The notes beneath the pieces were generated by a model. The model was not told the origin of the DNA. It saw only the letters and a list, made by a program, of their open reading frames with translations, and made no database searches. A program made the translations under genes and the position numbers. This document shows positions 3,987 to 37,156 of a stretch of DNA of 64,000 bases, piece after piece; the stretch's first letter is position 1, and each line of letters opens with the position of its first letter. Where the stretch lies: the NCBI RefSeq assembly GCF_988243305.1, contig NZ_OZ547136.1. The stretch is one strand, 5' to 3'.

Positions 3987-4220
3987 ATGGCAAGGTCCGA
4001 TTATGATATTATCAATCTGTCTCTGGAACATGAACTGAATGAGTGGCTGGCAGAGAGAGGTTATGCCGGACTGGTGGATAACCGGAATCGCCTGGCAGAA
4101 GTTGTTACCCGCAAATTGCAGGACAGCTTTTATATAAACGTTTCCAGGGATGCGCTGAACACGGCATACAGTGAACACCCGGAGTGGTTTTCTGGGCTTG
4201 TCTCCGGGGATGAGAATTAA
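3987..4220 (+). CDS. small hypothetical protein
   Basis: Internal ATG (MARSDYDIINL) preceded by aaggaaa Shine-Dalgarno; 77 aa. Confidence 0.35.
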   Translation: MARSDYDIINLSLEHELNEWLAERGYAGLVDNRNRLAEVVTRKLQDSFYINVSRDALNTAYSEHPEWFSGLVSGDEN

Positions 4221-6425: not shown

Positions 6426-9107
6426 ATGGTCACGATTTGTGTTGACGGTGAAAATAAGACTCATAAAATTACCGACTGGACGCTGTGGGCTGGAAATGAC
6501 GACAGAGAGGTTATGCTGACCTGTCATTTTCGCAGCGGGAGAAAATATACTCGTCCGCTTTCTGTATGTCAGATAACGCCAACTGTAAATTTGCGAAATG
6601 TTTTCCTCGAAAGGAAAGGGAACGCTGTAACATCCCGGGCTGAACTGGTTATTATATATGGTGATAAATATGCTGCTGTTTATTACCGCGAGGGTGAACG
6701 ACCCTACATCATGAAAACGACCGGCCTTGACTTTCAACAGTGTTCAGCATTTACAGAGCATGCCGTGTTTAATTACTTGTGTAGGGTGGCTAATGAACGT
6801 ATTTTTTATGCCCGTGGTAATAACAGAAATATCGATGAGAATATCCTTAGGCAGATAAAGAAAATAGTTCCTCATCCGGATACCGCCTTGCATGCATACT
6901 GTTCAGGACAGAGTAAAAAACGTGATTCGCCATGGGGTTTGATTTTTCCGTTTGGTCTTAATGAAAGTCAGTTGCTGGCTGTCAAACGGGCATTTTCCTC
7001 ACAGATTTCAGTTATTGAAGGACCACCTGGAACAGGTAAAACACAGACTATACTCAATATTGTTGCTAATATATTAATTCAGAATAAAACAGTGGCAATT
7101 TTGTCCAATAATAACTCAGCTGTCAGTAATGTTTATGAAAAGATGGACAAACAGCAACTGGGATATGTGATGGCACGACTGGGGAGTACGGAGAACAGGC
7201 AACAGTTTTTTTCAACGTCGATTTCGCGTTCTGAGGAAGTCTTACCTGACTCACCGTCTGCAAATGCGATTGATGATGTACTTCAACAAGTGAAAAAACA
7301 CCTGAATGCCATTAACCAGGTCGCTTCGTTAAAAGCAGAAATTAATGAGCTGAATATTGAGTATAAATACCTGCAGCAATGGCAGAGTCAGAATCTTCGA
7401 CCGGAGGAGCTTTTTTCTCACAAATACCGATTTTCCTCACAAAAAACAACCGACCTGATGGCTTATATTCATTACCTTTCTGACAGGCGGATTGGATTCA
7501 GAAACAGAATTGATTTGTTGTTAAACTTCATGATACTGAAAGTCAAACCATTGATGATTCCGGAGAGAAGGCTGGCGCTATTTACTTCTCTTCAGCTTTC
7601 TTATTATGAAAAAAATATCCGGGAAAAACAAATTTCTCTGAATGAATATGAGGAAGTATTTAAAAAATCTGATTTTAAAATTTTACTGGGGCGCCTGACA
7701 TCATGGTCTATGCTTTATTTAAAGCAACATCTGCGAAGAAATGTTTCAACAAGAAGTTCATTCTCGGCAGAGACATACAGGGATGAATTTGACCGTTTTA
7801 TAAAGCGTTTTCCGATTATTGGTAGCAGTACGCATTCGATTATTAACTCTATCGGCAAGGGGGCCCTTCTTGATTATGTTATTATTGATGAAGCCTCGCA
7901 GCAGGATATTGTTCCGGGCATTCTGGGACTGGGATGTGCCCGTAATGTAATCGTTGTAGGGGATCGTAAGCAACTTCCACATGTTCCTGTATTACTCCCG
8001 AACAGCCCATCTCCACCGGCAGAATACTATAATTGTGAGAAATATAGTCTACTTGATTCGGTTTGTATGTTGTTCAGGAACATGGTGCCAGTAACCCTTC
8101 TTAAAGAGCATTATCGTTGTCATCCTAAAATCATTCAATTTTGTAATAAGCAGTTTTATGATAATGCTCTGATACCGTTAACGGTTGATTCCGGTGAAGC
8201 CTCATTATCTCTGGTCATCACGGCAAAAGGAAACCATACCCGTAATTTTTCAAATCTCAGGGAGCTTGAATCTCTGGAAGGTCATTACTGGGATGAAGAA
8301 AGTAGCAGGGGATACATTGCCCCATATAATGCACAGGTTAATCTGGCTGAAAAAGTGCTGCCTGCTGATTTTGTGAAATCGACGGTGCATAAATTTCAGG
8401 GACGGGAGTGCGATGAAATTGTGTTTTCCACTGTGCTGGATAAGAAGCGCAGCAGCCAGCACAGTCGGAACATCGCGTTTGTTGATAATCCTGAACTGGT
8501 GAATGTCGCTGTTTCAAGGGCCCGAAATAAATTTACGCTGGTGACTGGTAATGATGTATTTGAACGCCACGCTGGACATATTGCGGCGCTGATTCGTTAC
8601 ATCAAATACTACGCTGATGACGGAGAGATTTTCGAGAGCCCGGTCATATCAGCATTTGATTTGCTGTACAGTGAGTATGACAAATCACTGGAACGACTGA
8701 ATAGTAGATTGAATTCAAATGATTCACACTTTAAGTCAGAACAGATTGTGGCCTGCCTGTTGCGGGATATCCTGTCGCAGGATAGTTATCGGAGTATGAT
8801 GTTTCATTCACAAATAGCGCTGAATCAGTTGGTGTTGCTGGAGCGGGGGGATTTTACACACCGTGAACAGTTATTCATGCGTAACCGGGCCAGTTGTGAC
8901 TTTGTTGTTTACTATAAGGTCGGGAAGACTCCATTAGGGGTTATTGAAGTGGATGGAGGTTATCATCTGACCAGTGTTCAGGCTGAACGTGATGAACTTA
9001 AAAACAGTATACTGAAGAAATGCGGCCTGCCATTGCTAAGATTACGTACTATAGACAGTGATATAGAAGGGAAGTTGGGAGCGTTTCTGTCAGGCCTGAC
9101 AGGCTAA
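6426..9107 (+). CDS. Superfamily-1 (Upf1/DNA2-like, AAA_11/AAA_12 type) helicase with unknown ~170-aa N-terminal domain and a C-terminal restriction-endonuclease-like domain; candidate phage-defence helicase-nuclease
   Basis: Walker A GPPGTGKT (nt 7020..7043), Walker B VIIDEASQ, helicase motifs VVGDRKQLPHV, KFQGRECDEIVFS, VAVSRARNKFTLV; C-terminal CDFVVYY...IEVDGGYH...ERDELK resembles a PD-(D/E)xK-type fold. Confidence 0.8.
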   Translation: MVTICVDGENKTHKITDWTLWAGNDDREVMLTCHFRSGRKYTRPLSVCQITPTVNLRNVFLERKGNAVTSRAELVIIYGDKYAAVYYREGERPYIMKTTGLDFQQCSAFTEHAVFNYLCRVANERIFYARGNNRNIDENILRQIKKIVPHPDTALHAYCSGQSKKRDSPWGLIFPFGLNESQLLAVKRAFSSQISVIEGPPGTGKTQTILNIVANILIQNKTVAILSNNNSAVSNVYEKMDKQQLGYVMARLGSTENRQQFFSTSISRSEEVLPDSPSANAIDDVLQQVKKHLNAINQVASLKAEINELNIEYKYLQQWQSQNLRPEELFSHKYRFSSQKTTDLMAYIHYLSDRRIGFRNRIDLLLNFMILKVKPLMIPERRLALFTSLQLSYYEKNIREKQISLNEYEEVFKKSDFKILLGRLTSWSMLYLKQHLRRNVSTRSSFSAETYRDEFDRFIKRFPIIGSSTHSIINSIGKGALLDYVIIDEASQQDIVPGILGLGCARNVIVVGDRKQLPHVPVLLPNSPSPPAEYYNCEKYSLLDSVCMLFRNMVPVTLLKEHYRCHPKIIQFCNKQFYDNALIPLTVDSGEASLSLVITAKGNHTRNFSNLRELESLEGHYWDEESSRGYIAPYNAQVNLAEKVLPADFVKSTVHKFQGRECDEIVFSTVLDKKRSSQHSRNIAFVDNPELVNVAVSRARNKFTLVTGNDVFERHAGHIAALIRYIKYYADDGEIFESPVISAFDLLYSEYDKSLERLNSRLNSNDSHFKSEQIVACLLRDILSQDSYRSMMFHSQIALNQLVLLERGDFTHREQLFMRNRASCDFVVYYKVGKTPLGVIEVDGGYHLTSVQAERDELKNSILKKCGLPLLRLRTIDSDIEGKLGAFLSGLTG

Positions 9108-31366: not shown

Positions 31367-32188
31367 ATGCGACTAGCCAGTCGTTTTGGTTATGCTGCAA
31401 ACCAGATACGCCGTGACCGTCCGCTGACACACGAAGAACTGATGCACTATGTTCCCAGTATTTTCGGTAAAGACCGGCATACTTCCCGCAGTAAACGGTA
31501 TGCGTACATTCCCACCATCACCGTGCTGGAAAGTCTGCAGCGGGAAGGCTTTCAGCCATTCTTCGCCTGCCAGACCTGTGTGCGCGACCCGGGCCGCCGG
31601 GGATACACAAAACACATGCTGCGCCTGCGCCGTAACGGAGAGATAAACGGAGAACATGTCCCTGAAATTATTCTGCTCAACTCTCATGACGGTACCTCCA
31701 GCTACCAGATGCTGCCGGGTTACTTCAGGTTCGTCTGCCAGAACGGATGCGTCTGTGGTCAGTCTCTGGGGGAAGTGCGTGTTCCGCACCGGGGAAATGT
31801 GGTGGACAGAGTCATTGAAGGGGCTTACGAGGTGGTGGGCGTGTTTGACCGGATAGAGGAGAAGCGTGATGCCATGCAGTCGCTGATTCTGCCGCCACCG
31901 GCACGCCAGGCGCTGGCACAGGCGGCACTGACTTACCGTTATGGTGACGAACATCGGCCCGTCACCACCGCCGACATTCTGACGCCACGACGCCGGGAGG
32001 ATTACGGTAAGGACCTGTGGAGTACTTATCAGACCATCCAGGAGAATATGCTGAAAGGCGGGATTTCCGGTCGCAGTGCAAAAGGAAAACGTATCCACAC
32101 CCGTGCCATTCACAGCATCGACACCGATATTAAGCTCAACCGCGCATTGTGGGTAATGGCAGAAACGCTGCTGGAGAGCCTGCGCTGA
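31367..32188 (+). CDS. DUF932-family protein (YfjQ/YafZ-like)
   Basis: 273 aa, the size of YafZ/YfjQ; conserved position after Ag43 in CP4-type islands. Confidence 0.7.
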   Translation: MRLASRFGYAANQIRRDRPLTHEELMHYVPSIFGKDRHTSRSKRYAYIPTITVLESLQREGFQPFFACQTCVRDPGRRGYTKHMLRLRRNGEINGEHVPEIILLNSHDGTSSYQMLPGYFRFVCQNGCVCGQSLGEVRVPHRGNVVDRVIEGAYEVVGVFDRIEEKRDAMQSLILPPPARQALAQAALTYRYGDEHRPVTTADILTPRRREDYGKDLWSTYQTIQENMLKGGISGRSAKGKRIHTRAIHSIDTDIKLNRALWVMAETLLESLR

Positions 32189-32433
32189 TGCAGCATGTCC
32201 CTGAAGGCGTGATTCAGGCACCAGAATCACCCGACGCCCCGGAGGCGCTGCCGGGGTGTCGTTCCATTTCTGATGATGACCTGTGCGCCTGGTGTACCCG
32301 TCTGCTTTACCGTCCCGGAGAAATCAGTCTGTGCAGACTGAGTACAGGCAATGGCATCTGGCCATCCGTCTGTGACCGGAACGGTTACGCGTACGGCTGT
32401 CCGGAATTTCAGCCGAATATCATTCATCCCTGA
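32188..32433 (+). CDS. DUF905-like small protein (YkfF-like)
   Basis: 81-aa ORF whose start overlaps the upstream stop (tgATG); assignment by position and size. Confidence 0.45.
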   Translation: MQHVPEGVIQAPESPDAPEALPGCRSISDDDLCAWCTRLLYRPGEISLCRLSTGNGIWPSVCDRNGYAYGCPEFQPNIIHP

Positions 32434-32526: not shown

Positions 32527-33000
32527 ATGAAAACATTGTCTCAGAACACCACCTCTTCGGCCTGTGCACCGGAGACTGGCCTGCAACAACTGGTTGCCAC
32601 CATAGTCCCTGATGAACAGCGCATCAGCTTCTGGCCGCAGCATTTTGGCCTCATTCCACAGTGGGTGACCCTGGAGCCCCGTGTCTTCGGCTGGATGGAC
32701 CGTCTGTGCGAAAACTACTGCGGTGGTATCTGGAATCTGTACACCCTGAACAACGGCGGGGCATTTATGGCCCCTGAACCGGATGACTATGATGACGAAA
32801 CATGGGTACTGTTCAATGCCATGAACGGTAACCGCGCTGAAATGAGCCCGGAAGCCGCCGGCATTGCCGCCTGTCTGATGACGTACAGTCATCACGCCTG
32901 CCGTACGGAGTGTTATGCCATGACGGTTCATTATTACCGTCTGCGGGATTACGCCCTGCAGCATCCGGAATGCAGCGCCATTATGCGCATTATTGACTGA
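32527..33000 (+). CDS. Antirestriction protein (KlcA/ArdB-like; YfjX/YafX family)
   Basis: 157 aa from MKTLSQNTTS; family recalled from CP4 prophage homologues. Confidence 0.7.
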   Translation: MKTLSQNTTSSACAPETGLQQLVATIVPDEQRISFWPQHFGLIPQWVTLEPRVFGWMDRLCENYCGGIWNLYTLNNGGAFMAPEPDDYDDETWVLFNAMNGNRAEMSPEAAGIAACLMTYSHHACRTECYAMTVHYYRLRDYALQHPECSAIMRIID

Positions 33001-33015
33001 AAGGGGGCAGGAACA

Positions 33016-33492
33016 ATGCAACAGCTTTCCTTTCTGCCCGGAGAGATGACGCCCGGCGAGCGCAGTCTCATTCTGCGGGCCCTGAAAACCCTGGACCGCC
33101 ATCTTCATGAACCCGGCGTGGCCTTCACCTCCACCCGTGCGGCACGGGAATGGCTGATTCTGAACATGGCGGGACTGGAGCGTGAAGAGTTCCGGGTGCT
33201 GTATCTGAATAACCAGAATCAGCTGATTGCCGGTGAAACCCTCTTCACCGGCACCATCAACCGCACGGAAGTCCATCCCCGGGAAGTGATTAAACGCGCC
33301 CTGTATCACAATGCCGCAGCCGTGGTGCTGGCACACAATCACCCGTCCGGTGAAGTCACCCCCAGTAAGGCAGACCGCCTTATCACGGAACGTCTGGTAC
33401 AGGCACTGGGCCTGGTGGATATCCGGGTGCCGGACCATCTGATAGTCGGTGGCAGCCAGGTTTTCTCCTTTGCCGAACATGGTCTGCTTTAA
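33016..33492 (+). CDS. RadC-like JAB-domain protein (YeeS/YkfG/YfjY family)
   Basis: JAMM-like motif HNHPSGEVTPSKAD; 158 aa. Confidence 0.85.
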   Translation: MQQLSFLPGEMTPGERSLILRALKTLDRHLHEPGVAFTSTRAAREWLILNMAGLEREEFRVLYLNNQNQLIAGETLFTGTINRTEVHPREVIKRALYHNAAAVVLAHNHPSGEVTPSKADRLITERLVQALGLVDIRVPDHLIVGGSQVFSFAEHGLL

Positions 33493-33554: not shown

Positions 33555-33776
33555 ATGAAAATCATCACCCGTGGTGAAGCCATGCGTATTCACCAACAGC
33601 ATCCTGCATCCCGTCTTTTTCCGTTCTGTACCGGCAAATACCGCTGGCACGGCAGCACTGAAACGTATACCGGTCGTGAAGTGCAGGATATTCCCGGTGT
33701 GCTGGCCGTGTTTGCTGAACGCCGTAAGGACAGTTTTGGCCCGTATGTCCGGCTGATGAGCGTCACTCTGAACTGA
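33555..33776 (+). CDS. DUF987 protein (YeeT-like)
   Basis: 73 aa, position between RadC-like and toxin-antitoxin genes. Confidence 0.65.
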   Translation: MKIITRGEAMRIHQQHPASRLFPFCTGKYRWHGSTETYTGREVQDIPGVLAVFAERRKDSFGPYVRLMSVTLN

Positions 33777-33794
33777 GTCAGTAAGGGCATTCTG

Positions 33795-34439
33795 ATGAGC
33801 AGAATTATCACCACCACCGTGTATACACTGCATGAGCTATCCTCCACCGCACAGGAAAAAGCCCGCGACTGGTACCGTCAGCATCATGCTGACAGCAACT
33901 GGTATGAAAACGTGTATGAGGACTTCAGGGAGGTCTGTGGCATTTTCGGAATTGACCTCCGCCAGCGCGTTTTCCGGCTCAGCAACGGCAGGTTTATGGA
34001 AGAGCCGTGCATCTGGTTCAGCGGATTCTGCAGTCAGGGGGACGGAGCCTGTTTTGAAGGGCGCTGGCACTGGCAGCCAGCGACACCCCGGAAAATCAGG
34101 GAATATGCCCCTCAGGACCGTGAGCTTCATCGTATCGCGGATGCCCTGCAGGCGGTACAGAAGCGTAACTTCTGGCAGTTACAGGCTGAAATCAGTCACC
34201 GGGGACGTTACTGCCATCCGTACAGCATGGATATCACCGTCACCCGGAACAGTCCGACTGGTCAGGCACTGACAGCCGATGCGGAAGCCGCTGTCAGCGA
34301 AGCCCTGCGCGACCTGGCCTTCTGGCTGTACCGCCAGCTGGAAAACGAGTACGACTGGCTGACCTCAGACGCCGCTGTAGATGAGGCCATTCACATCAAT
34401 GCATATACCTTCACCGAAGCCGGTCTCCACGCCGGCTGA
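33795..34439 (+). CDS. hypothetical protein (214 aa) inserted between the yeeT-like and cbeA genes
   Basis: Clean ORF with Trp/Cys-rich composition; not part of the K-12 CP4-44 gene order. Confidence 0.5.
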   Translation: MSRIITTTVYTLHELSSTAQEKARDWYRQHHADSNWYENVYEDFREVCGIFGIDLRQRVFRLSNGRFMEEPCIWFSGFCSQGDGACFEGRWHWQPATPRKIREYAPQDRELHRIADALQAVQKRNFWQLQAEISHRGRYCHPYSMDITVTRNSPTGQALTADAEAAVSEALRDLAFWLYRQLENEYDWLTSDAAVDEAIHINAYTFTEAGLHAG

Positions 34440-34488
34440 CCTGTCATCGTTAAACTATCATTCACCAATTTTTTGTGAGGATTTGATC

Positions 34489-34866
34489 GTGTCAGACACA
34501 CTCCCCGGGACAACACTTCCCGACGACAATCACGACCGCCCCTGGTGGGGGCTGCCCTGCACCGTGACGCCCTGTTTCGGGGCACGTCTGGTGCAGGAGG
34601 GTAACCGGTTGCATTACCTTGCAGACCGCACCGGTATCAGAGGCCGGTTCAGCAATGCGGATGCATACCATCTGGACCAGGCTTTTCCACTGCTGATGAA
34701 ACAACTGGAACTCATGCTCACCAGCGGTGAACTGAATCCCCGCCATCAGCATACCGTCACGCTGTATGCGAAAGGGCTGACCTGCGAAGCTGATACCCTT
34801 GGCAGTTGTGGTTACGTTTATCTGGCTGTTTATCCGACACCGGCAGCACCCGCAATCACCGTATAA
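34489..34866 (+). CDS. cbeA: CbeA/YeeU-family type IV antitoxin (cytoskeleton bundling-enhancing factor)
   Basis: GTG start; SDTLPGTTLPDDNHDRPWWGLPCTVTPCFGARLVQEGNRLHYLADR matches YeeU. Confidence 0.85.
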   Translation: MSDTLPGTTLPDDNHDRPWWGLPCTVTPCFGARLVQEGNRLHYLADRTGIRGRFSNADAYHLDQAFPLLMKQLELMLTSGELNPRHQHTVTLYAKGLTCEADTLGSCGYVYLAVYPTPAAPAITV

Positions 34867-34912
34867 CCCCGGATATCTCCCCTTTATCACCACCTGTTAC
34901 AGAGAACTTAAG

Positions 34913-35287
34913 ATGAATACATTACCCGACACTCACGTACGGGAGGCATCGGGCTGCCCGTCTCCCGTCACCATCTGGCAGACACTGCTCACCCGACTGC
35001 TGGACCAGCACTACGGCCTCACGCTGAATGACACACCGTTCGCTGATGAACGTGTGATTGAGCAGCATATTGAGGCAGGTATTTCACTGTGTGATGCGGT
35101 GAACTTTCTCGTGGAAAAATACGCGCTGGTGCGTACCGACCAGCCGGGATTCAGCGCCTGTACCCGCTCTCAGTTAATAAACAGCATCGATATCCTCCGG
35201 GCTCGCAGGGCGACCGGCCTGATGACCCGCGACAATTACAGAACGGTAAATAACATAACCCTGGGTAAGCATCCGGAGGCGAAATGA
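34913..35287 (+). CDS. cbtA: CbtA/YeeV-family type IV toxin (inhibitor of FtsZ/MreB polymerisation)
   Basis: 124 aa; LLDQHYGLTLNDTPFADERVIEQHIEAGISLCDAVNFLVEKYALVRTDQPGFSACTRSQLINSIDILRARRATGLMTRDNYRTVNNITLGKHPEAK matches YeeV. Confidence 0.85.
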   Translation: MNTLPDTHVREASGCPSPVTIWQTLLTRLLDQHYGLTLNDTPFADERVIEQHIEAGISLCDAVNFLVEKYALVRTDQPGFSACTRSQLINSIDILRARRATGLMTRDNYRTVNNITLGKHPEAK

Positions 35288-35775
35288 TGAAACTGGCCCT
35301 GACGCTGGAAGCCGACAGCGTTAACGTACAGGCACTGAACATGGGGCGCATTGTCGTTGACGTCGATGGTATTGAGCTTGCTGAACTGATTAACGTGGTC
35401 TGCGATAACGGTCACTCCCTTCGTGTTGTTGATGAATCTGACCGAGCCTCAACAGACTGCACGCCACCATTTGCTGCCCTGACCGGCATACGCTGCAGTA
35501 CCGCGCATATCACGGCAAAAGACAACGCCTGGCTGTACTCGCTGTCGCATCAGACGAATGACACCGGCGAATCAGAATGGATTCATTTTACAGGCAGCGG
35601 ATATCTGTTACGTACCGATGCGTGGTCATACCCGGTTCTGCGGCTTAAACGCCTGGGCCTGTCAAAAACGTTCCGCCGCCTGGTTGTCACACTCATCCGA
35701 CGTTATGGCGTCAGTCTCATTCATCTGGATGCCAGCGCTGAATGCCTGCCGGGTTTACCCACTTTCGACTGGTAA
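35284..35775 (+). CDS. YeeW-like protein
   Basis: 163-aa ORF overlapping the cbtA stop, conserved position. Confidence 0.65.
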   Translation: MMKLALTLEADSVNVQALNMGRIVVDVDGIELAELINVVCDNGHSLRVVDESDRASTDCTPPFAALTGIRCSTAHITAKDNAWLYSLSHQTNDTGESEWIHFTGSGYLLRTDAWSYPVLRLKRLGLSKTFRRLVVTLIRRYGVSLIHLDASAECLPGLPTFDW

Positions 35776-35777
35776 CC

Positions 35778-35984
35778 ATGAACAACATGAAATCATTAAC
35801 CACGGAAACCGCACTGGATATTCTGATTGCGTGGCTGCAGGACAATATCGACTGCGAATCGGGAATTATCTTTGACAACGATGAGGATAAAACAGATTCG
35901 GCAGCACTGTTGCCCTGTATCGAACAGGCCAGGGAGGGTATCCGTACCCTGTGCCAACTGCAGCTTCTGCACCAGAACCGATGA
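35778..35984 (+). CDS. small DUF957-like protein (tentative)
   Basis: 68-aa ORF from MNNMKSLTTETALDILIAWLQDNIDCESG. Confidence 0.35.
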   Translation: MNNMKSLTTETALDILIAWLQDNIDCESGIIFDNDEDKTDSAALLPCIEQAREGIRTLCQLQLLHQNR

Positions 35985-36073: not shown

Positions 36074-36919
36074 ATGATGTCAGATATCACAATCTCCCGC
36101 CTGGAAGTGGTCAACGGACATACGGACATTATCTGCTCCACCTCAGTCAGCCACATTCTGGCTGTGCGAAAGACTACACTGCTGCAAATCGACACACTTA
36201 TCCGGCAACTGACTGAAATATCAGCAATGACAGAAAGTATTGGCGGTAAAACCGCACTGGACTGGGCCATGAAACAGGATTTTCGCTGCGGCTGCTGGCT
36301 CATGGATAAACCTGATACAGCAATGAAAGCTATCACCCGCAATCTCGATCGCGAAATCTGGCGTGACCTGATGCAATGCTCCGGGATGCTTTCCTTAATG
36401 GATGCACAGGCCCGTGATACATGGTACCGATCACTGGAGTACGATAATTTTCCGGAAATCAGTGAAGAGAATATTCTGAGTACGTTTGAGCAGCTACACC
36501 AGAATAAGGATGAAGTGTTTGAGCGAGGAGTGATCAACCTCTTCAGAGGGTTGAGCTGGAATTACAAAACCAATTGCCCCTGTAAATTTGGCAATAAAAT
36601 TATCGTCAACAATCTGGTGAGGTGGGACCGGTGGGGATTGCATCTTATCACCGGGCAACAGGCAGATAGACTTGCCGACCTGGAAAGAATGCTGCATCTG
36701 TTCAGCGGCAAACCGATCCCCGACAACAGGGAAAACATAACTATTCATCTGGACGAACATATCCGGTCTCTTCAGGGAAAAGAATGCTATGAAGATGAGA
36801 TGTTCATTATTAAATACTTTAAGAAGGGCTCTGCGCACATCACGTTCAGGAAGCCAGAACTGGTTGACAGACTGAATGATATTATCGCAAAACACTATCC
36901 TGATATGCTGGCAGTATAG
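36074..36919 (+). CDS. DUF4942-like protein (tentative family), last gene of the island before serX
   Basis: 281 aa from MMSDITISRLEVVNGHTDII; family assigned from memory of CP4-type island ends. Confidence 0.55.
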   Translation: MMSDITISRLEVVNGHTDIICSTSVSHILAVRKTTLLQIDTLIRQLTEISAMTESIGGKTALDWAMKQDFRCGCWLMDKPDTAMKAITRNLDREIWRDLMQCSGMLSLMDAQARDTWYRSLEYDNFPEISEENILSTFEQLHQNKDEVFERGVINLFRGLSWNYKTNCPCKFGNKIIVNNLVRWDRWGLHLITGQQADRLADLERMLHLFSGKPIPDNRENITIHLDEHIRSLQGKECYEDEMFIIKYFKKGSAHITFRKPELVDRLNDIIAKHYPDMLAV

Positions 36920-37068: not shown

Positions 37069-37156
37069 TGGCGGTGAGGGGGGGATTCGAACCCCCGATA
37101 CGTTGCCGTATACACACTTTCCAGGCGTGCTCCTTCAGCCACTCGGACACCTCACC
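37069..37156 (-). tRNA. serX: tRNA-Ser (anticodon GGA), 88 nt with long variable arm and CCA end
   Basis: Reverse complement reads GGTGAGGTGTCCGAGTGGCTGAAGGAGCACGCCTGGAAAGTGTGTATACGGCAACGTATCGGGGGTTCGAATCCCCCCCTCACCGCCA. Confidence 0.95.

Follow-up and report, generated by a model that had tools for sequence, protein, structure and literature searches.

The window analysed here is a 64,000-nt stretch of contig NZ_OZ547136.1 (RefSeq assembly GCF_988243305.1), and it includes the end of a CP4-type island located at tRNA-Ser(GGA) (37069..37156, minus strand; ARAGORN and RefSeq annotation), which forms the island boundary beside ghrA. Upstream of this boundary, eight plus-strand genes form one tight, co-oriented row: a DUF932 gene (YafZ/YfjQ-like; 31367..32188; Pfam, E=1e-51), a KlcA/ArdB-type antirestriction gene (32527..33000; Pfam, PF03230), a RadC-like JAB domain gene (YeeS/LfgB-like; 33016..33492; Pfam), the DUF987 gene yeeT (33555..33776; Pfam), an ORF of 214 aa with an ATG start (33795..34439), a CbeA/YeeU-family type IV antitoxin gene with a GTG start (34489..34866; PF06154, E=2e-54, and RefSeq annotation), a CbtA-family toxin gene (34913..35287; PF06755, E=4e-64) and a DUF5983 gene encoding full-length YeeW of 163 aa (35284..35775; Pfam), whose start overlaps the cbtA stop codon (4 nt). 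The 214-aa ORF begins 18 nt after the end of yeeT and is followed by cbeA after 49 nt. Two further plus-strand genes complete the island, namely, a DUF957 gene (35787..35984; RefSeq label, the longer version of this ORF giving no Pfam match) and a DUF4942 gene, the last of the island (36077..36919; Pfam and RefSeq). RadC, DUF987, CbeA, CbtA and DUF5983 thus occur in the order and on the one strand of a CP4-44-type terminal module, with gaps of −4 to 62 nt, and no promoter- or terminator-like site was found on the plus strand between 32261 and 36020. The Pfam assignments agree with the gene order given in the first-pass annotation, in which the 214-aa ORF lies between yeeT and cbeA within the row RadC-YeeT-X-CbeA-CbtA-YeeW.

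The 214-aa ORF is a genuine gene and not a chance ORF, because the protein has 2895 database homologues, its dN/dS among intact Escherichia coli copies is 0.17–0.30, its AlphaFold2 model is confident (pLDDT 96.5, pTM 0.89) and all 26 conserved residues of the family are kept. The first-pass annotation had allowed that the ORF might be a fusion or misannotation of sequence flanking yeeT and yeeU; instead, it encodes a separate protein, identical (100%) to RefSeq WP_000086759.1 of E. coli NU14. A Shine–Dalgarno-like AAGGG was read directly from the sequence 8 nt upstream of the ATG (33782..33786, plus strand). The model shows a single compact alpha/beta domain with no disordered segment. Conserved residues were defined as columns invariant or at least 90% conserved in an alignment of 118 family sequences, and those retained in the window protein include E14-L15, G77-F78-x-x-Q81-G82-D83-G84-A85-x-F87-x-G89, D108, Y139-x-H141, W177-x-Y179 and N202..F206..G210. 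The earlier description of the protein as Trp/Cys-rich holds to a modest degree for this copy (W 3.7%, C 2.3%) but not as a trait of the family, since the enrichment is lineage-specific: most of the window Trp positions are Tyr in other members, conservation being confined to W26, W177 and C86.

A profile search with the 214-aa protein, as proposed in the first-pass annotation, matched phrog_5162 with E=7.2e-37 (residues 2–210 against profile positions 2–195 of 201), and RefSeq applies the label DUF8835 to E. coli orthologues at 93.5–95% nucleotide identity. By these matches, the ORF is a member of DUF8835/phrog_5162, a family already catalogued with no function assigned; it fits the family over its full length (approximately 210 aa) and carries the same conserved motifs, with no difference. 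NCBI's PGAP draws on DUF8835 as a recent addition to Pfam; the Pfam copy searched here (2025), which predates the model, gave no match, nor did NCBIfam or PADLOC. Neither phmmer nor profile searches of the PDB detected a relative of solved structure. A hit to the PHROG 'Ref-like' group (E=0.13) was treated as noise rather than as a clue to function. The family comprises 3611 clusters at 50% identity (representatives at E<=1e-3), most of about 200–225 aa, and is strongly acidic (median pI 4.7, net charge about −17); with a net charge of −7.7, the window copy falls far short of this acidity. No recognizable DNA-binding or nuclease domain was found in the window protein, nor consistently among 118 family members, and searches for literature on DUF8835, its protein accessions and phrog_5162 returned no papers.

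We then compared the locus with the 3′ module of the K-12 cryptic prophage CP4-44 (yeeS-yeeT-cbeA-cbtA-yeeW). The flanks share 85–96% nucleotide identity, and the same families occur in the same order and orientation, so that the window indeed shows the CP4-44 pattern plus one gene, although the island lies at a different site from CP4-44. In K-12 MG1655 the yeeT-to-cbeA interval is 73 nt and gene-free, in agreement with the reported absence of the 214-aa gene from the K-12 layout, and yeeW is truncated. By blastn against NC_000913.3, homology ends at window position 33819 and restarts at 34465, and the intervening 645 bp (33820..34464) are replaced by 12 bp. The ATG and the first eight codons are still present in K-12 and strain E15, K-12 keeping 25 nt of the 5′ end (33795–33819). 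Conversely, O157:H7 strains F6321 and EH09-18-41 hold a 113-nt remnant of its 3′ part (34327..34439, plus strand), located directly downstream of the yeeT stop codon. Within the aligned blocks, the identity to the 214-aa gene is 92–95% for the 25-nt remnant and 88–91% for the 113-nt remnant, making it unlikely that either is non-homologous. The 5′ remnant in K-12 and the 3′ remnant in O157:H7-type islands show that the gene is ancestral to CP4-type islands and was deleted independently at least twice, once in K-12 CP4-44 (~645 bp) and once in O157-type islands. The K-12 layout thus arose by deletion, and the first-pass annotation, in describing the gene as inserted, had the direction reversed. 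Its description of the position as a site of variable cargo did not hold either: when 60 E. coli records from a spread sample were compared, the 214-aa gene was the only one ever found between yeeT and yeeU, the slot otherwise being empty.

Among 5426 complete E. coli genomes, the gene is present in 2000 (about a third), and the complete yeeT-X-cbeA-cbtA block, in which X denotes the DUF8835 gene, is present in 1799. RefSeq names for family members are hypothetical protein, DUF8835 or 'antitoxin of toxin-antitoxin stability system', the last of which was carried by 8 of 29 full-length E. coli copies in an unbiased spread sample. Of the antitoxin-labelled E. coli copies, seven were inspected and six of these are disrupted, which puts the disrupted share of E. 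coli copies at about one in four. Such frequent disruption fits a function needed at transfer and not during residence. Together with the two or more deletion classes and a constraint looser than that on RadC (dN/dS 0.04–0.10), it could also be taken to mean that the gene in resident islands is a decaying, functionless relic. We consider this very unlikely, given that dN/dS remains clearly below 1, that the window copy is intact with every near-invariant residue kept, and that the identical protein is present on at least 1000 contigs.

The legacy RefSeq/UniProt product name raises the question of whether DUF8835 is itself an antitoxin. Beyond the propagated name, only the proximity of toxin–antitoxin genes favours this reading, and the wording, generic and COG-style, is also applied to unrelated proteins. 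No Phd/YefM, RelB, ribbon-helix-helix, HTH or YeeU domain was detected in the 214-aa protein, nor was there a consistent hit among the 118 members. Compared with CbeA/YeeU (PF06154), the protein gives no Pfam match, an hhalign probability of only 0.2% and a different predicted fold. Since, in addition, no toxin partner is conserved across the family and members occur in phages, a genuine antitoxin is hardly credible, and the product name is unsupported.

The first-pass annotation further raised the idea that some genes at this position modulate the toxin–antitoxin pair. In line with this, a YeeU-family gene adjoins the DUF8835 gene, on one side or the other, in each of the four arrangements observed in Enterobacteria, among them YeeT-X-CbeA-CbtA in E. 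coli, YeeT-CbeA-X-CbtA in Klebsiella and YeeT-CbeA′-CbeA-X-CbtA, with a 4-nt overlap, in Salmonella. The two genes are sometimes in one reading frame, as an in-frame X-CbeA read-through ORF exists in at most 98 complete genomes, and on the conjugative plasmid p2 of Pukyongiella a different toxin–antitoxin pair, ParS/RES, lies directly downstream of DUF8835. These arrangements would suit a third, auxiliary element of the CbeA/CbtA module in Enterobacteria. Such a protein would tune, trigger or back up the antitoxin; it might, for instance, respond to a signal by freeing CbtA, or join CbeA in acting on FtsZ/MreB. Nevertheless, in a variant with a short spacer, a single TGA-to-TTA substitution is enough to create the read-through, and another small ORF is also found between CbeA and CbtA, indicating that interleaving is tolerated there. 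For the 343-aa protein that natural read-through of DUF8835 into CbeA yields, AlphaFold2 predicted no interface (pTM 0.57), with a linker pLDDT below 50 and a low-confidence CbeA N-terminus, a result that is weakly informative owing to the shallow CbeA alignment. Furthermore, the CbtA/CbeA pair is annotated as intact where the DUF8835 gene is deleted, and YeeU is intact beside disrupted copies, with the exception that CbtA itself is disrupted in one case. The K-12 toxin–antitoxin pairs, which have no 214-aa gene, are functional, and other upstream operon genes (yafX-ykfG-ykfH) did not affect toxin neutralization when tested (PMC5371832). Outside Enterobacteria, CbeA/CbtA is absent within 6 kb at 79 of 80 (alphaproteobacterial) loci, and the family extends to phages, several of them jumbo phages, a range much broader than that of the pair. 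Modulation of CbtA/CbeA is therefore unsupported, and an accessory role in the module appears distinctly unlikely. A residual link may exist, a YeeU-family neighbour having been found, on either side, in every enterobacterial arrangement.

The neighbours of the gene vary by lineage and include a helicase, DUF4326, ParS/RES, and CbeA or CbtA. In alphaproteobacterial conjugative elements, the order is ArdC, ParB_N, a 145-aa gene, DUF8835, a 1446-aa Sno-like helicase and Toprim, and among the 80 loci ParB_N was found in 56, an AAA_34/Helicase_C_4 protein in 67 and DUF7146-Toprim in 44. More divergent members lie in a comparable row of ParB_N, DUF6878, DUF6915, DUF8835 and helicase. The gene upstream of DUF8835 in Alphaproteobacteria was considered as a YeeU homologue, which would imply a YeeU-like plus DUF8835 module conserved across Proteobacteria. 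The initial hhalign match (92%, E=6e-7) was an artefact of a Salmonella CbeA in the alignment; a clean 39-sequence alignment gave a probability of 0.3% against YeeU, and with HMMER neither Pfam nor the PDB gave a hit. Likewise, blastp and hhalign did not relate YeeT (DUF987) to DUF6915 or to other upstream partners. DUF8835 has no conserved upstream partner. Its recurrent place after ParB_N and before the helicase gene, with the Toprim primase gene next, is seen again in the divergent members and could indicate a helper in DNA processing or replication that acts with the ParB-like protein, the Sno-like helicase and the Toprim primase on incoming or excised DNA. This is unlikely in our estimation, as no recognizable DNA-binding or nuclease domain is present in this acidic protein, the E. 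coli islands keep the gene without ParB, helicase or primase neighbours, and the phage copies lie among small early-type genes, outside replication modules.

Other contexts of the family may point to the entry of mobile DNA. On Pukyongiella p2, the gene row is ParB, SSB, DUF932, RadC, RadC, further genes, DUF8835 and then the ParS/RES pair, and in a Tistrella conjugative element ~2 kb separate the DUF8835 gene from the downstream NikA-relaxase gene, which has the same orientation. Homologues occur in 59 phage records; the genomes of most of those listed are 80–360 kb, and several phage copies are inside terminal repeats near the genome end. The island DUF932 gene has a homologue, 63% identical, in the IncF plasmid leading region, where the homologues of the DUF932 and antirestriction genes adjoin SSB, ParB, PsiB and oriT. 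DUF8835 itself is absent from the IncF leading region and gave only five hits in Escherichia plasmids. Leading regions are reported to carry anti-restriction genes, SSBs, methyltransferases and toxin–antitoxin genes and have been termed 'establishment and anti-defence' regions (PMC11541004). DUF8835 resembles the products of leading-region genes (KlcA/ArdB, ArdA, ArdC, PsiB, SSB) in being co-located and co-oriented with KlcA-type, DUF932, SSB, ParB and ArdC genes, in being acidic, small and soluble, and in occurring in phage early or terminal-repeat regions, but it shows no sequence or fold similarity to ArdA, ArdB/KlcA, ArdC, PsiB or SSB. Searches of PADLOC, Pfam, NCBIfam and the PDB gave no homology tying it to anti-defence activity.

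From the conjugative-element, IncF leading-region and phage terminal-repeat contexts, together with the acidity and the frequent disruption, the DUF8835 protein may be made early, once the DNA of a mobile element enters the cell; the position of the gene relative to oriT in the carrier elements is one that we infer. The protein would then act alone: its conserved SQGDG/YxH/N-x-Y-x-F surface would bind a host factor or disarm it enzymatically. It would be unneeded for CbtA/CbeA function and dispensable in long-resident, immobile islands, and such dispensability would account for the frequent loss and disruption. The window holds an intact, ancestral CP4-type backbone gene, deleted in K-12 and O157; that its product is an establishment or anti-defence factor independent of CbtA/CbeA we put at somewhat less than an even chance. 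Against independence stands the YeeU neighbour, always present in Enterobacteria and, in Klebsiella and Salmonella, arranged so that the gene lies between antitoxin and toxin; against anti-defence, the alphaproteobacterial neighbours (ParB, helicase, primase) suit DNA processing equally well. The weak acidity of the window copy relative to the family median also counts against this reading. The broader proposal, of a new-fold establishment/anti-defence effector of conjugative elements, plasmids and jumbo phages, made early and perhaps coupled in enterobacterial islands to the adjoining YeeU/CbtA cytoskeleton module, is tentative and on balance doubtful.

The 214-aa gene is in itself an ordinary gene of modest significance, which K-12 has merely lost. 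For the CbtA/CbeA system, the consequence is that K-12 CP4-44, the reference layout for work on this pair, represents a deletion derivative and not the ancestral operon. For annotation, the widespread name 'antitoxin of toxin-antitoxin stability system' is unfit for inference. DUF8835 is a reasonable candidate for anti-defence screens, with thousands of members and a confident model lacking a solved relative; it is found in establishment-type gene clusters on plasmids and conjugative elements and also within jumbo-phage terminal repeats.

The window holds the terminal module of a CP4-type integrative island, adjoining tRNA-Ser(GGA) (37069‒37156, minus strand) and ghrA. All genes of the module lie on the plus strand, in the order Ag43 (28115‒31036, the longest ORF), DUF932 (31367‒32188), an 81-aa ORF (32188‒32433, hypothetical in RefSeq), a KlcA/ArdB-type antirestriction gene (32527‒33000), RadC/JAB (33016‒33492), DUF987 (YeeT; 33555‒33776), the 214-aa ORF (33795‒34439), the antitoxin gene CbeA (34489‒34866), the toxin gene CbtA (34913‒35287), DUF5983 (YeeW; 35284‒35775), DUF957 (35787‒35984) and DUF4942 (36077‒36919). 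The 81-aa ORF, situated between DUF932 and the antirestriction gene, shares 1 nt with the stop codon of DUF932. The RadC-YeeT-CbeA-CbtA-YeeW order with an extra 214-aa gene between yeeT and cbeA, as described in the first-pass annotation, was thus confirmed. Between the antirestriction gene and DUF957, neighbouring genes are spaced by ‒4 to 62 nt, and a consensus scan detected no promoter-like or terminator-like sites on the plus strand at 32261‒36020. Because of these two features, the gene row looks like one transcription unit at the sequence level, in agreement with the single transcription unit proposed for the CP4-6 homologues (PMC5371832).

The 214-aa ORF is a real gene. Its ATG is preceded, 8 nt upstream, by an AAGGG motif, and the protein has 2895 homologues in a 90%-clustered protein database and 3611 family representatives at 50% clustering. 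Among intact E. coli copies, dN/dS was 0.17‒0.30, similar to yeeT and cbeA and indicating less constraint than for radC, and the window copy keeps all invariant and near-invariant residues in an alignment of 118 homologues. The copy of E. coli CREC-532 (retrieved segment 1501‒2145), annotated as intact, carries S80G and Y139D at near-invariant positions, and its product may, judging from these substitutions, have an impaired function even though the frame is open. The protein was also described as Trp/Cys-rich; the contents (W 3.7%, C 2.3%) bear this out only modestly, and the enrichment is specific to the E. coli lineage: members from other lineages have Y at most of these W positions, and W26, W177 and C86 alone are conserved.

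The 645-bp gene was 100% identical to that encoding WP_000086759.1 of E. coli NU14, and a 100% match to window 33555‒35287 was found in strain 190693. Over window 26000‒39000, NU14 differs at 660 of 13001 aligned positions, yet the 645-bp gene is identical; by this alignment, the source of the window is a strain related to NU14 and not NU14 itself. At a nucleotide identity cut-off of at least 80%, 2000 of the 5426 complete E. coli genomes carried the gene, at a maximum of eight copies per genome, and the complete yeeT-214-aa gene-cbeA-cbtA block was present in 1799. A profile search gave a full-length match to phrog_5162 (E=7e-37), while no matches were obtained in a 2025 copy of Pfam, NCBIfam or PADLOC, and no publication found in a literature search mentions DUF8835 or the protein accessions. 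RefSeq names the product ‘hypothetical protein’, ‘DUF8835 domain-containing protein’ (misspelt ‘pootine’ in newer records) or ‘antitoxin of toxin-antitoxin stability system’. The last name is a generic COG-style phrase shared by many unrelated proteins, and domain searches of the protein and its relatives gave no backing for an antitoxin. The gene is an ordinary, already catalogued one.

The gene had been regarded as inserted relative to the CP4-44 island of K-12, in which yeeT and cbeA are 73 nt apart. In the alignment, K-12 homology ends at window 33819 and restarts at 34465, so that K-12 retains the start codon and first eight codons of the gene, ATGAGCAGAATTATCGCCACTACCG. This unannotated remnant lies within the yeeT-cbeA spacer, at 8057‒8081 of the compared K-12 segment, and strain E15 belongs to the same deletion class. 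A different deletion was found in O157:H7 F6321 and strain EH09-18-41, where the last 113 nt of the gene (34327‒34439), encoding ...ENEYD..TSDAAVDEA...G*, remain right after the yeeT stop codon; these remnants, at 523‒635 of the compared segments, are likewise unannotated. The two remnants do not overlap, which means that an ancestral gene was deleted twice, independently. On this sequence evidence, the gene is ancestral, and K-12 shows a derived layout, produced by loss and not by gain in the window island; we regard the identity and ancestry of the gene as very probable. The first-pass observation stands, and its interpretation holds in part. The suggestion of variable cargo at this position is unsupported, because across a spread sample of 60 records no other gene ever occupied the yeeT-yeeU slot. 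In CP4-6 and CP4-57, two further islands of K-12, only 18‒37 nt separate the DUF987 gene from the antitoxin gene.

Decay was also detected among full-length copies. Six of the ten copies opened, NU14 counted, were disrupted by a frameshift, an internal stop or stop loss. The antitoxin label was carried by 8 of 29 full-length copies in an unbiased spread sample, and six of the seven opened E. coli copies bearing this label were pseudogenes, which together suggest that approximately a quarter of E. coli copies are disrupted.

In all enterobacterial arrangements examined, the gene adjoins a YeeU-family gene, but the order varies: YeeT-DUF8835-CbeA-CbtA in E. coli of the window type; the same with an extra 76-aa ORF between CbeA and CbtA in a divergent E. 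coli island, whose DUF8835 variant shows 64% protein identity; YeeT-CbeA-DUF8835-CbtA in Klebsiella; and YeeT-CbeA'-CbeA-DUF8835-CbtA in Salmonella, with two tandem CbeA paralogues and a 4-nt CbeA/DUF8835 overlap. Since the Salmonella CbeA adjoining DUF8835 is the closer relative of E. coli CbeA (77% identity), the order is truly swapped. In 455 of 5426 E. coli genomes, the spacer between the gene and cbeA is 31 nt shorter (window 34400‒34492; compared segment 2101‒2190), and in up to 98 genomes this short spacer, combined with one TGA-to-TTA change, creates an in-frame 343-aa DUF8835-CbeA ORF, which PGAP records as a pseudogene and, separately, a YeeU gene. This read-through form and the constant enterobacterial neighbourhood would fit an accessory of the CbeA/CbtA module. 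Against a required link, however, the pair persists where the gene has been deleted or broken, the pairs of K-12 work in its absence, and an AlphaFold2 model of the natural fusion (pTM 0.57) has an unstructured junction. Moreover, the distribution of the family is overwhelmingly independent of the pair. Based on these four points, we consider an accessory role quite unlikely. In addition, upstream operon genes other than this one had no effect on neutralization of the toxin YkfI (PMC5371832).

The independent distribution is evident outside Enterobacteria, where the closest relatives are alphaproteobacterial (58‒64% identity) and CbeA/CbtA is absent within 6 kb at 79 of 80 DUF8835 loci. The order at these loci is ArdC (37 of 80), a 712-aa ParB_N protein (56), an unannotated 145-aa gene overlapping the DUF8835 start codon by 8 nt (68), DUF8835 (80), a 1446-aa AAA_34/Helicase_C_4 ‘strawberry-notch-like’ protein (67) and DUF7146-Toprim (44). 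The family directly upstream of DUF8835 (136‒150 aa; for example, 5571‒6008 of the compared locus), with its start overlap in 68 of 80 loci, matches nothing in Pfam or the PDB and bears no relation to YeeU, YeeT or DUF6915. A YeeU homologue was considered at this position on an hhalign probability of 92%, which arose because the Salmonella CbeA had contaminated the input; a clean alignment gave 0.3%, and HMMER searches were empty. More divergent members (38‒50% identity) have the gene order ParB_N, DUF6878, DUF6915, DUF8835, helicase and YAcAr, and one is flanked by a methyltransferase on one side and a PD-(D/E)XK/UvrD pair on the other. The main functional rival to our proposal below, in which DUF8835 would assist the products of the adjacent ParB, helicase and primase genes in processing DNA, has in our estimation a minor chance of being correct.

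DUF8835 was also found on 111 plasmid records, of which 41 are conjugative and mostly alphaproteobacterial, and in a Tistrella element, where NikA-like and relaxase genes follow it on the same strand at a distance of approximately 2 kb. The MOBP/MPF_T plasmid Pukyongiella p2 carries the row ParB, SSB, hypothetical, DUF932, RadC, RadC, DUF6878, three small genes, DUF8835, ParS/RES and AbiE, a close parallel in gene order to the E. coli island. Its MbcA/ParS antitoxin and RES toxin genes, followed by AbiEi/AbiEii (segment 9711‒10810), come directly after DUF8835 and mirror CbeA/CbtA in E. coli. Homologues occurred in 59 phage records; among the matches listed, most genomes were 80‒360 kb, including several jumbo phages. 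The phage genes lie a few kb from the genome end, surrounded by small unannotated genes, and in Caulobacter jumbo phages (CcrPW, CcrBL9, CcrSC and others) and Klebsiella phage fENko-Kae01 (1835‒2452 of the compared segment) they are inside annotated terminal repeats. The CcrColossus homologue is at 4001‒4648 of the compared segment, in a record without a repeat feature. Such a location is the position expected of early or first-injected genes.

The AlphaFold2 model, built from 118 diverse homologues, is a single alpha/beta domain (pLDDT 96.5, pTM 0.89). Foldseek detected no relative in the PDB (best E 0.32), PDB sequence and profile searches were empty, and the sole structural relatives were uncharacterized phage proteins of approximately 200 aa. 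The conserved polar residues E14, Q81, D83, D108, Y139, H141 and N202 fall in the motifs ELS, FSGFxSQGDGAxFEG, YxH and NxYxF, and their conservation suggests that they form a single functional pocket or surface. Acidity is marked in the family (median pI 4.74, median net charge ‒16.8), in the window protein less so (pI 5.6, charge ‒7.7).

Homologues of the island DUF932, at approximately 63% identity, occur on at least 5000 plasmids, at least 4430 of them conjugative. The leading region of one IncF plasmid with such a homologue reads antirestriction, methyltransferase, SSB, DUF905, ParB, PsiB, Hok, DUF932, SLT, oriT and traM. Leading regions carry, on the strand that is transferred, genes for anti-restriction, SSBs, methyltransferases, SOS inhibitors and toxin-antitoxin pairs, and have been proposed as ‘establishment and anti-defence’ regions (PMC11541004). 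Taken together, the results show that the 214-aa gene belongs to the backbone of a leading-region-like operon, was already present in the ancestor of these islands and has since been lost repeatedly. We propose that its product would be an early establishment or anti-defence factor acting on a host target through the conserved acidic surface or pocket. It would be of use while the element is entering a new host and could be dispensed with after the island has become a permanent resident, and this would account for its decay in E. coli. The proposal as a whole is put forward tentatively, at slightly below even chances. The interest is modest: the DUF8835 family would be a good anti-defence or establishment candidate, and the misleading database name ‘antitoxin’ is corrected.
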